A model generated the notes under the pieces. It did no database searches. It was not told where the DNA came from and saw nothing but the letters and a program-made list of their open reading frames with translations. A stretch of DNA of 64,000 bases. Origin: a virus. The DNA lies in IMG/VR virus record IMGVR_UViG_3300002835_007523, positions 35,094-99,093 of that record, one strand, 5' to 3'. Position numbers and translations under genes: made by a program. The first letter of the stretch is position 1, and every line of letters starts with the position of its first letter. Positions 53,714 through 59,788 of the stretch are shown in pieces.

Positions 53714-55705
53714 TTATATTCTCTGTTTTTTCTTAATTGCTCCGACCACTACTTCCTTAGCCAAAGCAAGTAAGTCTTTGCTTGAGTTAACTCGCTTAAA
53801 CAATTCAGCACCATGTTGTAGCTCATACTCCGGGCTACCATACTTGTTGATTGCTTGCTGGTTTCTCTCTTCTATGGAGGCATAGTCTCTGTCACGCATG
53901 ATTAACACCATCGTGGTCAAGATACCCCGCTTGCTGATGCGTTTAATTACATCATCATTTTTATCAGAGTTAAAGACACCGTCCGTAATCATGAACAGCA
54001 TCTTATTCTTACGTTGAGATGACAGTAGTACTTTTTCTGCCATCAGTAACGACTCGTATGGATCGGTACCGCCATTGCCATAGATGAACTTGTACTTGGT
54101 ACGTTCAGCTTTCTGGGCTCTTGTGTATGCGATCTCTGTCTTGTCGTCAAATGCATAGACAGTTACTGGACAGTCTATGTGCTCTAAAGCACGTTTAATA
54201 GTCCAGCACATTAGAGATGCTTGACGATCGTTATTGTCACTGTTCATTGAGCCAGAACGATCGATCAAGATAACAGCTTCTATGTCTGTGCTGTCATCCC
54301 CTTCAGTCCAACGGTCAAAGGCTTCTTCGGCATTCCTATTGCGTATAAACCTACGCACATTCAGCTTGCCGGAAGATACTCCCCTGAACCAGTGTGGTTC
54401 TGAGTCATCTCTAAGCTTTTGTAGTTCGTGTGAGAATTTCTTGTAGTCTAGAAGATTAACTGGTGGGACAGGGACAGAGTCAAAGACTCCAGCCTCGGCC
54501 TCATCGAAATCTTCACGACCAGTTATGATTACTCGCTGCTTTCTGCGTATATCACGTAGAACATCTTTACGTGAATATATGTCTTCTAAAGCATCTTGTA
54601 TATCATCCATTAGATCATTGGGTATACCACCGAAACTCTTGTGGTGTCCGCTACCAGCATTCAAAGAGATCTGATCTTCTAACTCTGGGTCGAGTTGATC
54701 AATGCGTTCTTTGTTTTGCTGACGCAGTTCAAGAGCTTCTTCAGCATTCTGTGGAATTGTTGTAGAACTTATTGGTACTCCATTACCACCTTTTACGATG
54801 GATGATGATTCTTCCGAATCGTCCGGGCCAACTGGGAATCCACAGCCACCAGGCCATTCTTCTTGTTCCTCAGTAACGTCTTGCGGAGTTGCTGGGTCTT
54901 TGGGTGTATAGACTGACTCTCTTGTACCCATGTTTGCAGCAACCTTTGCGTCACGTTCTTGAGCTTTGCCTGGTTCTGGTCTACCCTTGATTAACGGTAG
55001 TCTGTCCATACATCCAGCATGTCCAGCATTCATCATCTCTTGATCTAGCTCATCAAGTACGAGCTTTTGAAACTCCTCGATCAATTGTTGAGCACGTTTG
55101 TAGTCTCTTGGAAATGCTAAGAGTCTGTACTCATCAATGATGCGTTGAATGTCTGGAATTAGTTCTGGTTTGTAGAACATATCTCTAAACGCTTCTCTGA
55201 TATGAACTGGCAAGTAACGTCTACCATAAAGCATTGGGTAGTTTGTCACTGCAGTATCTGGAGTTGCCGCTGCATGCTTGAGTGCAATCTCTTGCAAGTA
55301 GGGCATGACTGATGGATACCTTGCAATGAACAACGTCTCGCATCGTGCGTCCTCCAACAGGTTAAACGCCATGTAAAAACCTGTATCAATGACCCACTTG
55401 ATTATCGTTGTTCCTTTGCGAGGAGAATAGAAGTGATGAGCCAATTCGTGATAGTTAAGACCAGTCACGTTAGTCAGCGTTTCTATATCCATTTCGTCTA
55501 TCTTTGAAGCATTTAGCCAGATCGTTTCACCATCCGACCACGCTGCTGCGTGACCTTCTTTAACGACCTGAACAGTGATAGGATCGCCAGTTAGAACTCG
55601 ATCAGCACCCTCATACACTCTGGCAAGTGTTGAGAGTTGGAGTGCTCGAATCTGTTCTTTCTCAGATCGAAACTCTCCTTGTTCTATCTCATCTACATAT
55701 CCCAT
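53714..55705 (-). CDS. VWA-domain protein with N-terminal HExxH (CobT-like MoxR partner)
   Basis: NYHELAHH..FNLLEDAR; MIDAS DRSGS, GGT, ITDG. Confidence 0.88.
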   Translation of the reverse strand: MGYVDEIEQGEFRSEKEQIRALQLSTLARVYEGADRVLTGDPITVQVVKEGHAAAWSDGETIWLNASKIDEMDIETLTNVTGLNYHELAHHFYSPRKGTTIIKWVIDTGFYMAFNLLEDARCETLFIARYPSVMPYLQEIALKHAAATPDTAVTNYPMLYGRRYLPVHIREAFRDMFYKPELIPDIQRIIDEYRLLAFPRDYKRAQQLIEEFQKLVLDELDQEMMNAGHAGCMDRLPLIKGRPEPGKAQERDAKVAANMGTRESVYTPKDPATPQDVTEEQEEWPGGCGFPVGPDDSEESSSIVKGGNGVPISSTTIPQNAEEALELRQQNKERIDQLDPELEDQISLNAGSGHHKSFGGIPNDLMDDIQDALEDIYSRKDVLRDIRRKQRVIITGREDFDEAEAGVFDSVPVPPVNLLDYKKFSHELQKLRDDSEPHWFRGVSSGKLNVRRFIRNRNAEEAFDRWTEGDDSTDIEAVILIDRSGSMNSDNNDRQASLMCWTIKRALEHIDCPVTVYAFDDKTEIAYTRAQKAERTKYKFIYGNGGTDPYESLLMAEKVLLSSQRKNKMLFMITDGVFNSDKNDDVIKRISKRGILTTMVLIMRDRDYASIEERNQQAINKYGSPEYELQHGAELFKRVNSSKDLLALAKEVVVGAIKKKQRI

Positions 55706-55714
55706 TTATTGCTC

Positions 55715-57106
55715 CTAGTTCTTTGTCTTTAGCCAAGCGTCTACTTCATCTGCGACAGGAGTCTCAGATCCTTTATCTTGTACTAGCTGTACCTCATTGA
55801 GGTTGAACTCTTCACGAAGATTGTATTCGTGAGTTTGGAATACAAGCTGGACCTTGTCCTGCTCGTCCTTGTCAAAGTGTGCAATAAAGTTAGCTACTGC
55901 AAACTCATAGCCAAATGCTGGTATAAAGCGTTCAAGCTCCATTGCCATATTGGTTGAGATTGGAGTTTCAAACTCACCTTTTGCTGCTTCGTTACGCATT
56001 TGCTTGACGATAAGTTTGATGGTCTTAGACTTAATCAACTTATCCTCGACATCGTCGTCGTAGTCCCAGTGAATTTGAACTGAGAAACGATTACGCATAG
56101 CAAAATTGAGCGGCGTAGTACCGACATACTCTGGGTTCATGGTGGCAAAGATCATGAGGTCTGGATGAGCCTCAATTGTCTCGCCGTGATGATCCAATAG
56201 CTGAAGGACACGTCGTCCGTCAAGGAGTGAATATAGACTGGTGTATATCTTTGGCGAGATAAAGTTAAACTCGTCAAGGATGAGTACGCCACCGTTACGA
56301 ACAACGTCAGTAACAGGACCGTCAATCCAGGCAAAGCCACCTGTCTCATGGTCATATATATCTTTACCAAAGAGAGTAGATGTCTCTAGCGCTGCATTGC
56401 CAGACACTTGAGCAACACGCTGTCTGCGTGCAGATGCCCATGCTAGAACTGCAGTAGTCTTACCGGGACCGGTAGGGCCGTAGATAAGGACGTCTTCGCC
56501 CATTTCTTTGGCCTTGTCAAAGCGTTCAAAGTCGGACTTGCCGAATAGAGTGCGATTGACATACTTAGATGCAAGCTCAAGCGGCGGTATTGAAGCTAGT
56601 GCTAGTGATAACACTTTGCCGTGTGTCTGAACCTGTGTAACTGGCGATGTTTGTGTTGGAGCGGACTCTGGCTCATCTCTACGCAGATCGATAATGCTTT
56701 CTGCTAGGGATTTGTCCTCGACGGATACTTTGTCATACAGTTCTTGTATGGCTTCTGTAGCTGGTCTACCATCTACTGTCTTGGAATTCTTGAATGATGA
56801 CAACGCTTTGTTGCCAAGCACTGGAGAATATCCACGCTCACTGATCTGTGTGTAATCACCGTCAGTTACATAGACAGCGATTGGTCGATTAGTTACGGTC
56901 TCGTGTTCAGATACAACGTCCAATAACGAATAGAGAGTAGTCGGTTGCCACTTGTTATGTGGACCTTTTTCTCCATCAGTTACTCTGGAATAAACCAGAA
57001 CTGGAACAGATTCGTTGTTCAGATCATTGTTAGGAACAATAAGAGTTTGACGCTTATTTGCTCCCATAGACGGTGTATACGTCTCGACGAACATCGCTAT
57101 ATTCAT
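55715..57106 (-). CDS. MoxR-family AAA+ ATPase (CbbQ/NirQ/CobS-like)
   Basis: GPTGPGKT, WIDGP, LILDEFN, ATMNP.YVGT.PLN.A..NRF. Confidence 0.9.
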   Translation of the reverse strand: MNIAMFVETYTPSMGANKRQTLIVPNNDLNNESVPVLVYSRVTDGEKGPHNKWQPTTLYSLLDVVSEHETVTNRPIAVYVTDGDYTQISERGYSPVLGNKALSSFKNSKTVDGRPATEAIQELYDKVSVEDKSLAESIIDLRRDEPESAPTQTSPVTQVQTHGKVLSLALASIPPLELASKYVNRTLFGKSDFERFDKAKEMGEDVLIYGPTGPGKTTAVLAWASARRQRVAQVSGNAALETSTLFGKDIYDHETGGFAWIDGPVTDVVRNGGVLILDEFNFISPKIYTSLYSLLDGRRVLQLLDHHGETIEAHPDLMIFATMNPEYVGTTPLNFAMRNRFSVQIHWDYDDDVEDKLIKSKTIKLIVKQMRNEAAKGEFETPISTNMAMELERFIPAFGYEFAVANFIAHFDKDEQDKVQLVFQTHEYNLREEFNLNEVQLVQDKGSETPVADEVDAWLKTKN

Positions 57107-57258
57107 TGTTGCCTTTCCCTTCTTTAGTTGGTATTTCTACCTCACCACTTACACGGTGTAAGTGGCTAGCAAGATAACCAAACCTGTTGGTTACCCTACT
57201 AGCCACTAACTAAATGGGCAAGGGGCTAACGCCGATATGCAGACGCGTTAGCCCCCGG

Positions 57259-57445
57259 CACCGGTATAGGCAAAACTACTTACCGAAGCTACTTACTCGC
57301 AGGAAGGAGATGAATCCAGGTTCTCCGATGATGTAAGCGCTATGCACTTACGATATTCGGCCAGAAACAAGGATTGAGAGCTCTGGTCTACTTTCTTTAG
57401 AGGAAGCCTGTTTTGCCTACCCCTCCGTCAACCGGTGTTGACGAA
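57259..57445 (-). ncRNA. candidate structured RNA (multibranch, loop-loop contact)
   Basis: 10-bp closing stem and four internal stems; mismatches read as G-U on the - strand. Confidence 0.45.
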
Positions 57446-57447
57446 AT

Positions 57448-58173
57448 CTATACTTGCTCAAGAGTTATGGTTGAATCCCAAGCCGCTCTCAATATAGGTG
57501 CACTATCTAACAGTGTGGCTTTCCACTCTTTTGATATTGCCTCTGATATTTCTTTGGTTGATAGGCCCTGTTGTCTACCATCCATATGCCATCTATTGAC
57601 GCACTTCATATACAGAGATATAGACTCTGGCATTGGTTTACCGTTCAATAGTTTGGGGAACTCATTTGCTAGGTCAATAGATAGGGCTGTGTGTTTGTAT
57701 ATGCCTGCCATATTTATGGCAAGAGGACCGTAAAACTTTACGGCATGAGCAGGCCAGCCATTCCTCCAATTATACGTTGACATAATTCTGTATATTCGAA
57801 TTATCTCTACAAGATATCTAGGCCGTAGAGTTTGATTGTTGTACCACTTTATTTTCTTTATTAGTTCGGCTGCAACTAGTAGGGGATAGTCCTCGTATAG
57901 TTGTGTGTAATAACAGGGTAGGTACCCATATTTACCGTTGTAGATTGCTTTTGCTATTACTTCTGGGGGAATCTTTTCTGCAGTTTCATGGCCTTCTGTA
58001 AAATAAAACGGGGTATATAGCGGCCGTTCACCATCTGTAGATAACCACGATGGAACTTCATCTCTTATGAATTTACTGGCTTCATCGTGGTCGTCTTCTC
58101 CTAGTGTTAACACTTCAAGGTCTTGACTTGTGTCTTGATCTCTGTGAGTTAACATAGTTGTTTCATTGGTCAC
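57448..58173 (-). CDS. hypothetical protein
   Basis: 241 aa, AAGGAG upstream. Confidence 0.75.
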   Translation of the reverse strand: MTNETTMLTHRDQDTSQDLEVLTLGEDDHDEASKFIRDEVPSWLSTDGERPLYTPFYFTEGHETAEKIPPEVIAKAIYNGKYGYLPCYYTQLYEDYPLLVAAELIKKIKWYNNQTLRPRYLVEIIRIYRIMSTYNWRNGWPAHAVKFYGPLAINMAGIYKHTALSIDLANEFPKLLNGKPMPESISLYMKCVNRWHMDGRQQGLSTKEISEAISKEWKATLLDSAPILRAAWDSTITLEQV

Positions 58174-58885
58174 CTTTTTCTCCTTCCTTTTCTTTGACTA
58201 TATTTATTAGCAGTTTTGGTTTATGTACTTGAAGTATCTTTCCAGTAGCAAGATCAATAGTTAAAGGATCTCCATCCCACTGAAAAGCTTTTCGTTTACC
58301 GCCCAAATCTCTGTGCCCAACACCGTTGCAAAATCGACATTCGATTTTAGCTCTGTGATTATCTGGGTTGAGATTTGGATTGCTTTGCAAACAGTTACAG
58401 CCGTATACCGTGAAGGTTTGACCACTAAATGTTTTTACCTCTTGATATCTGAATCTGTTAGTGTTTTTATTTCTTGCTTTATCTTTTTGTCCATTGCATT
58501 GATACCAATGTACTCCTTTACCTACGCATTTGGGGCAAGGCACCTTTCTAGTGTCAGTAAAGGTGTCTCCCTCTTGAAGTAAATAGAGTTTATGATTCCT
58601 CTGTACAAGACCTTCAAGGTTTGCATATCTGATTAATACATCTCTTGTTGATGGATAACTAAAGGACCGATCCAAGGCTATAATTGCTAATCCATTTGGA
58701 AGATAGCGAATTAGATCAGGACCCCAGTTTTTGAAATGTATGCCAATAGATGCACCGTCATTTCTGTACGTTGCATACAGTCTTTTGTTGTAGAGAGTTC
58801 TAAAAATCTTTTTTCTACCTCTATCGATGTATGCTTTTGCTGAATCATAATCGTGGACAATTGCATTCCAACGATTACTTGTCAT
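58163..58885 (-). CDS. hypothetical protein with DnaJ-type CxxCxGxG motifs
   Basis: CPKCVGKG and CRFCNGVG; GAAAGGA RBS. Confidence 0.75.
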   Translation of the reverse strand: MTSNRWNAIVHDYDSAKAYIDRGRKKIFRTLYNKRLYATYRNDGASIGIHFKNWGPDLIRYLPNGLAIIALDRSFSYPSTRDVLIRYANLEGLVQRNHKLYLLQEGDTFTDTRKVPCPKCVGKGVHWYQCNGQKDKARNKNTNRFRYQEVKTFSGQTFTVYGCNCLQSNPNLNPDNHRAKIECRFCNGVGHRDLGGKRKAFQWDGDPLTIDLATGKILQVHKPKLLINIVKEKEGEKGDQ

Positions 58886-59065: not shown

Positions 59066-59073
59066 TGTTGTCG

Positions 59074-59147
59074 TGCGCTGTGTAGGACTTGAACCTACGA
59101 CGACCGGATTATGAGTCCGGGGCTCTAACCAACTGAGCTAACAGCGC
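59074..59147 (-). tRNA. tRNA with CAT anticodon (Ile2 or elongator Met); CCA not encoded
   Basis: GCGCTGT TA GCTC AGTTGGTTA GAGC C CCGGA CTCATAA TCCGG TCGTC GTAGG TTCAAGT CCTAC ACAGCGC A. Confidence 0.95.
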
Positions 59148-59171: not shown

Positions 59172-59459
59172 CTATTTATGGCTATCACACGTGCATTCTT
59201 GCCCATCAGCAAGTGCGTATTTACTGTAGTCCACATTAGGTACGGCCATAGTAAATACTCTTATCATGCGTCTAACTTTCCACTCCATTAGTTGTGCAGG
59301 AAATGCTGCACCCCACATGGTGTCATAACTTTGTATCTGATCTACTCGTATGATGGACTCACTGGTCCTATGGCTTTGAGGCCAGTTGTAATTAGTTATC
59401 TTATAGATAACTGGGGTATCACAACGATACCTAACTGATTCATCTATCACTCCATGCAT
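59172..59459 (-). CDS. hypothetical protein
   Basis: TAATG coupling. Confidence 0.7.
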   Translation of the reverse strand: MHGVIDESVRYRCDTPVIYKITNYNWPQSHRTSESIIRVDQIQSYDTMWGAAFPAQLMEWKVRRMIRVFTMAVPNVDYSKYALADGQECTCDSHK

Positions 59460-59788
59460 TACTCATCTCTCTTTCGTGTTCTTCGTATCCGTATAACATA
59501 CAGTTCATCTTCGTCTAAACCTCCCCACACACCAAAGTCTTGACGAGTATTGACTGCAAAGTCAAGGCATTCTGTAGTTACGGTGCAGGTAGCACAGACT
59601 AGCTTTGCCTGTCGTGTTCTTTCATCCTTTTCCGGACCGCGTTCTTGGTCGGGATGAAAGAATAGTTCTGGATCTACAGTTCTACAAGCAGCATCCTCTT
59701 GCCACTGGTAATTCTTTAGCGTCGGTGTAGGTAATCGTTTGATTACTACATTTGTTTGAACAATAGTGCGTCGTATCCTAGAGGACAT
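59459..59788 (-). CDS. whiB: WhiB-family protein (WhiB3/WhiD-like)
   Basis: WQEDAACR..FFHPDQERG..AKLVCATC.V..EC..FGVWGG. Confidence 0.92.
   Translation of the reverse strand: MSSRIRRTIVQTNVVIKRLPTPTLKNYQWQEDAACRTVDPELFFHPDQERGPEKDERTRQAKLVCATCTVTTECLDFAVNTRQDFGVWGGLDEDELYVIRIRRTRKRDE

Follow-up and report, generated by a model that had tools for sequence, protein, structure and literature searches.

In the thrS leader of Escherichia coli, two mimics of the anticodon arm are bound by the dimeric synthetase beside the Shine-Dalgarno (SD) sequence. The early region of phage T7 contains RNase III hairpins that serve as intercistronic processing sites, and the two hairpins of the actinobacterial 6C RNA share one C-rich loop sequence. 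A loop-loop kiss is also part of B12 riboswitches, and loop-loop pairing in pRNA was once supported phylogenetically by covariation between loop segments. A catalogue of candidate structured RNAs from IMG/VR (PMC10690425), which covary and lie in phage intergenic regions, many of them directly upstream of genes, shares its data source and its kind of object with the present study; its text mentions no ATPase-associated motif.

The window analysed here, a stretch of 64,000 nucleotides, belongs to an IMG/VR virus record of 99,093 bp with a GC content of about 43%. It contains a WhiB gene (59459-59788) and a tRNA-Met (59073-59147), the latter being the sole Rfam match in the whole window (as 59074-59147). 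GC content, WhiB gene and tRNA-Met together fit an actinobacterial phage. The element lies 1.6 kb downstream of the tRNA gene, in a 341-nt spacer (57107-57447) separating two minus-strand genes (Table 1). The nearest modules to the ATPase encoded downstream are MoxR, NorQ, CbbQ and midasin, and its family carries the PHROGs label 'porphyrin biosynthesis' (CobS-like). The VWA protein encoded after it had no TROVE match and no solved relative, for which reason an analogy with Ro and Y RNA was dropped.

Table 1. Features of the spacer, its flanking genes and related loci (window numbering unless a locus is named; CACCGGT, TAGGCAAAAC and AATCC rows in plus-strand coordinates)
Feature	Position or members	Strand	Remarks
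Upstream gene	57448-58173	-	241-aa ORF, no family assigned
HP0	57424-57445	-	9-bp hairpin, starts 2 nt past the stop codon of the upstream gene
D1	57263-57423	-	closed domain of ~161 nt, core of the finding
D1 helix P1	57410-57423 with 57263-57276	-	extended TAGGCAAAAC stem
D1 helix P2	57402-57407 with 57278-57284	-	
D1 helix P3a	57371-57375 with 57313-57317	-	pair earlier described as kissing
D1 helix P3b/c	57359-57368 with 57320-57326	-	irregular continuation of P3a
D1 hairpin P4	57344-57351 with 57333-57340	-	GTAAG hairpin
D1 motif AUAUCG	57351-57356	-	unpaired
D2 (hairpin B)	57216-57262	-	long stem, core 57222-57255; directly follows D1
Hairpin B loop	57233-57244	-	invariant 12-nt form GUCUG-N-UAUCG (11-12 nt among lineages)
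D3	57107-57215	-	multi-hairpin module closed beside the ribosome-binding site
D3 hairpin I	57161-57207	-	21 bp, 5-nt loop, nearly perfect
D3 hairpin II	57143-57158	-	
D3 hairpin III	57130-57141	-	GAAA loop
D3 closing strands	57208-57214 with 57123-57129; CCC 57216-57218 with GGG 57117-57119	-	
Shine-Dalgarno AAAGG	57112-57116	-	
Downstream gene	55715-57106	-	463-aa AAA_5 ATPase (MoxR/NorQ/CbbQ-like)
VWA gene	53714-55705		663-aa protein, after the ATPase
CACCGGT; ACCGGTG	57259-57265; 57431-57437		
TAGGCAAAAC; GTTTTGCCTA	57267-57276; 57410-57419		
AATCC; GGATT	57313-57317; 57371-57375		
Clade A	window, L043		ATPase 79% identical
Clade B	L002/L053, L045		long structured spacer
Clade C	L003/L108, L004/L109, L044, L052		long structured spacer
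Clade D	L005/L046		long structured spacer
Other long spacers	L068 and a few other lineages		the other lineages with other inserts
Upstream gene, clades B-D	L002:1536-2198, L003:1501-2175		~220-aa protein with Cys-rich motifs
tRNA-like minihelix	L002:2409-2451, L003:2397-2437, L100:1407-1446, L068:1404-1443, L058:1402-1441		~40 nt

A first-pass annotation had proposed, at 57259-57445, a novel structured RNA of about 190 nt containing a pair of kissing hairpin loops. All of its listed motifs were recovered where it had placed them or at most one base away, among them CCGAA/TTCGG, GGAGA/TCTCC, CCAGA/TCTGG and the GTAAG..GC hairpin, and the 187-nt stretch folded better than its shuffles (z -3.4 on the minus strand, -3.2 on the plus strand). 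Pairing was tested on a sequence-only MAFFT alignment of the window with the related locus L043 (n = 2), these being the only two sequences that carry the exact D1 of the window. RNAalifold on this alignment returned 47 pairs, 13 of which were changed on both sides. The nested model of D1 comprises 36 pairs, all standard in both sequences and including 11 double changes; when the partners were slid by 1-3 columns as a control, 0-1 double changes and 33-43% pairing were obtained. The closing stem TAGGCAAAAC/GTTTTGCCTA was kept in L043 with two base-pair flips, as was the GTAAG hairpin with one double change, and helix P2 also had support; the CCGAA/TTCGG stem was not conserved there. The outer stem, CACCGGT/ACCGGTG, had to be given up, its distal copy being absent in L043 and its site forming the loop of a local 9-bp hairpin, HP0, none of whose 9 pairs is broken in L043, where 2 carry double and 2 carry single compensatory changes. 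Thus the proposal of a structured RNA held for the gene-sense strand but not for its boundaries, since the closed domain is D1 itself, HP0 being a separate hairpin and D1 one module of a larger leader, which extends as far as the start codon of the ATPase gene.

The claim of kissing loops was sustained in one part and not in the other. The 5-bp complementarity of AATCC and GGATT covaries, reading ACUUG/CAAGU in L043 with three double changes in the five pairs, and this pairing (P3a) is robust because conserved flanks anchor the alignment columns. The hairpins that would present the two segments, however, were out of register in L043: in the alignment register CCAGA/TCTGG was 60% paired and GGAGA/TCTCC 80% paired, with register-shifted hairpins of 4-5 bp being possible, and in places a shifted alignment of this region was better by sequence. 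When the two folds were enforced, the nested and the hairpin forms of the window had energies of -49.5 and -49.6 kcal/mol, respectively, the kiss itself not being counted, as against -51.0 and -44.9 kcal/mol in L043, where the nested form is also the minimum-energy fold. A continuous nested helix would seem to fit these two sequences equally well or better than two kissing hairpins, and the 'kissing loops' may, on this modelling, be no more than the place where one long irregular helix begins. The same data bear on the notion of a self-cleaving ribozyme, or of an RNA that multimerises via complementary loops as does the phi29 pRNA (RF00044), which shares with the present element its phage origin, a length of about 170 nt and two complementary, covarying loop segments. 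While covariation of the two 5-nt segments is what such an RNA would display, no ribozyme or pRNA model matched, the presenting hairpins were not kept in register in L043, the nested helix explains the same covariation at least as well, and the 99-kb genome is of another type than that of phi29. This reading was therefore judged highly improbable.

Evidence for folding extended over the whole 341-nt spacer, which gave a z of -9.1 against shuffles and, between the window and L043, 97 consensus pairs with 19 double changes and none broken. The consensus energy was -48.95 kcal/mol in the minus (gene) sense versus -26.3 kcal/mol in the plus sense, and the first-pass annotation was correct in noting G-U pairs on the minus strand, several pairs being G-U solely in the gene sense. 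The two spacers were 71% identical, versus 60% at third codon positions of the ATPase gene. They had no ORF in common, and their substitutions were without 3-base periodicity; on these two grounds, a small ORF in the spacer of the window was dropped. The flagged stretch is a folded gene-sense RNA, real and under selection. A function at the level of DNA, as a replication origin, a packaging site or single-strand hairpins, might be suspected from the density of inverted repeats and the repeated motif in this non-coding spacer, but it is scarcely probable at all given the strand asymmetry of the pairing, the compensatory changes in long-range nested helices, and a motif that is not repeated elsewhere in the genome.

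No known RNA family was found to account for the element, in agreement with its claimed novelty. Rfam 15, with families of riboswitches, ribozymes, sRNAs, pRNA, tmRNA and GOLLD/ROOL among others, returned nothing in the spacer when run on the whole window at gathering thresholds, and when E was relaxed to 10 over 56900-57700, only miRNA and snoRNA noise far below threshold was seen, on hairpin I; the spacers of L002-L005 gave no Rfam matches either. Neither ARAGORN nor Rfam called a tRNA or tRNA-like structure in the spacer of the window, and this spacer had no blastn match among INPHARED phages. A covariance model built for the element (R1) matched, among the loci, only the window and L043, with one copy in the 99-kb genome and no matches in clades B-E. 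A structured phage leader is a familiar kind of object, and it is the family that appears to be new.

The suggestion of a riboswitch-like aptamer, ribozyme or sRNA made in the first-pass annotation fared less well, no riboswitch or ribozyme model having matched the spacer. A metabolite aptamer formed by D1 and coupled to an expression platform made up of hairpin B and D3 would agree with the closed shape of D1, its conserved junction bases and its position upstream of a helix close to the SD, and the two near-isoenergetic folds at the centre of D1 in the window could be taken for a switch. The cobalamin riboswitch (RF00174) might come to mind from the PHROGs label of the ATPase family, but its models gave no match at E up to 10 in the window region or in the spacers of L002-L005, and the ATPase is closer to MoxR, NorQ and CbbQ. 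No other riboswitch model matched at E up to 10, and MoxR-like ATPase and VWA genes suggest no ligand. Furthermore, the interior of D1 varies strongly between clades while the loop motif described below is kept, which is not the pattern of a ligand pocket. We regard a riboswitch as distinctly improbable.

The loop of hairpin B was the same in clades A-D and in L068 on stems of completely different sequence; in the window and L043, the extension of the stem (57258-57262 with 57216-57219) showed 2 double changes. In clades B-D, a second hairpin inside D1 bears the same GUCUG-N-UAUCG loop. Across these twin-loop hairpins (nine, from six lineages), 10 of 12 stem pairs had double changes and the loop was invariant. 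In clade A, the first copy has been remodelled, leaving CUG and AUAUCG unpaired at the apex of D1, beside P4. The motif was confined to the ATPase spacer in five complete genomes, and pattern scans of IMG/VR for the hairpin-B loop gave, among the matches listed, only known contigs and stemless chance hits. In L068, a 10-nt unit with GUCUGCAUA is tandemly duplicated (~1120-1145), ~250 nt upstream of its hairpin B; counting this duplication, its spacer has three half-motif copies. Hairpin B was also considered as an intrinsic terminator and rejected, no terminator being predicted on the minus strand and the loop being 12 nt long; in clades B-D, the pyrimidine run that follows it is part of the extended stem.

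In displaying one conserved loop on two hairpins with variable stems, within a 5' leader whose structure extends into the ribosome-binding region, the element resembles operators of the thrS type. It differs from them in that its loop of 11-12 nt resembles no tRNA loop, and in that the first copy has been remodelled into a larger domain in the clade of the window. The 6C RNA likewise has two hairpins showing an identical loop in an actinobacterial setting, but loop sequence, size and context differ, and there was no Rfam match.

Beyond the loops, the closing part of D1 appeared to be shared. On its 5' side, this consists of P1a, an internal loop, P1b, the dinucleotide AG and P2, and on its 3' side of P2', a single A and P1'. 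With different helix sequences, the layout seems to recur in clades A-D, although the comparison is weaker than the clade-A test because it relies on a manual, anchor-based alignment. RNAalifold on a MAFFT alignment of clades B-D found almost no consensus because that alignment misplaces the loop motif.

Downstream of hairpin B, D3 contains in hairpin I a structure of the size of an RNase III substrate, with 21 conserved pairs and compensatory changes between the window and L043. In five lineages, namely clades B and C and three others, this position is taken by a tRNA-like minihelix that resembles an acceptor stem with a T-arm and shows covariation at 8 of its 11 pairs. It consists of an acceptor-like stem of 5-6 bp, a linker of 11-14 nt and a second stem, of 5 bp, whose loop of 7 nt is like a T-loop. 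The minihelix adjoins the upstream side of the ribosome-binding site of the ATPase gene, and neither ARAGORN nor Rfam called it a tRNA. In every clade, the strand following hairpin B pairs with the purine block that precedes the SD, in differing sequences; against shuffles, the signal of this SD-proximal helix was modest (z only about -3 at best, in clade C). Like the RNase III hairpins of T7, the element places long irregular hairpins (~21 bp in hairpin I), in sense orientation, between the genes of a phage operon, but it is much larger, multi-domain and furnished with an invariant loop motif. The spacer could on these grounds be held to be mRNA punctuation only, providing RNase III or RNase P sites and exonuclease blocks that affect stability, with no regulatory ligand or factor. 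The long, nearly perfect hairpin I, the minihelix at that position in sister clades, and the two or three plain hairpins that occupy the same place in some related phages would all be in keeping with this. Such a function, however, leaves unexplained both the conserved junction nucleotides of D1 and an invariant loop of 11-12 nt that is borne on changing stems and duplicated in clades B-D, and is considered improbable.

Relatives were obtained through ATPase-seeded searches, which gave four IMG/VR loci, ten metagenome loci and, when a broader alignment was used, 64 IMG/VR loci from similar phages of ~100 kb. Several hundred homologues of the ATPase were found in ENA, JGI and Logan metagenome assemblies, the closest (P0001-P0003, 84-99% identical) being on Logan contigs; a scan of GTDB genomes with the ATPase alignment found no relative. 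Most related phages have 0-100 nt before the ATPase gene, and a long structured spacer is found in a subset, the element being confined to a small set of uncultured freshwater phages; it is therefore dispensable for the ATPase gene as such. Where present, it is without exception in sense orientation and immediately precedes the ATPase start. The gene on its other side in clade A is unlike its counterpart in clades B-D, from which it follows that the RNA travels with the ATPase gene and not with the upstream gene.

Other contents were noted at this position in other loci. In the more distant L086 (1002-1131; also in L087), whose ATPase is 52% identical, a 504-nt spacer holds a different domain of ~130 nt with a 12-bp closing helix, in which GUCUG occurs twice, once in a hairpin loop. 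Across 33 distinct spacers of related phages (at least 40 nt each), GUCUG was found 24 times in sense versus 7 times in antisense, with about 7 expected; counted over related sequences, this excess is only suggestive. In the lineage of L058, L059 and L095, the spacer of ~700 nt includes a conserved ORF of ~60 aa (~1230-1400), flanked by structured segments on one side and by the tRNA-like minihelix on the other. The stretch ahead of the ATPase gene has the look of an insertion hotspot for small elements.

A presence and absence of this kind resembles that of an inserted RNA gene, and it was considered whether D1-D2 might be cut from the polycistronic transcript as a stable, trans-acting non-coding RNA of ~230 nt, its loops serving as a sponge or decoy or as pairing seeds. 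D1 and hairpin B are compact, closed domains, plausible signals for processing occupy a matching position within D3 of different clades, and the tRNA gene lies nearby upstream. On the other hand, neither a sigma-70-type promoter nor an intrinsic terminator was predicted on the minus strand of the spacer, which is consistent with read-through transcription, and the upstream ORF of clades B-D shares its final ~15 nt with the 5' strand of P1. A search for complementary targets of the loop gave nothing convincing: loose matches across the window were near chance, with 19 observed and about 12 expected. A 13-nt site at 58619-58631 (plus strand), which belongs to the minus-strand mRNA of the second gene upstream, is complementary to the loop of hairpin B with 2 mismatches; pairing of the loop to this site or to the ATPase start region was dropped, as it was not above chance. 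A released trans-acting RNA is thus somewhat unlikely, though still to be taken seriously. Both this RNA and a cis-acting leader are likelier than a riboswitch, a ribozyme, a pRNA-like RNA or an element acting as DNA.

It is a cis-acting intercistronic leader that we tentatively favour, as a possible rather than a probable account. The spacer RNA would act on the ATPase/VWA message of which it is part, and the two copies of one loop motif would dock a trans factor that recognises their sequence, in the simplest case a hypothetical dimeric RNA-binding protein. Binding of this factor, together with the SD-proximal helix and the processing signal of D3, would then set the translation and/or stability of the ATPase-VWA message. 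The putative processing signal would be the 21-bp hairpin in the window and the tRNA-like minihelix in sister clades, the two being read as interchangeable; this interchangeability keeps the alternative of a released trans-acting D1-D2 RNA alive. A bolder proposal, which we consider unlikely, would be a new class of phage RNA whose repeated, invariant loops capture a specific factor of host or phage, whether to act as a regulatory sponge or decoy or to let the MoxR-VWA genes regulate themselves through an operator, and which is freed from the operon transcript by processing modules that are interchangeable between lineages (a tRNA-like minihelix or a hairpin of RNase III type).

To our knowledge, almost nothing has been learned of the control of gene expression in freshwater actinobacterial phages. 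These abundant phages have seldom been isolated or studied in culture (PMC10202952). The value of the element is limited by its narrow distribution among the relatives examined. Within that range, a conserved leader of several domains, in which an invariant loop is duplicated, precedes a widespread and functionally obscure ATPase/VWA gene pair. The loop could be used as bait for the putative factor, and the phage lineage could be recognised by the element.
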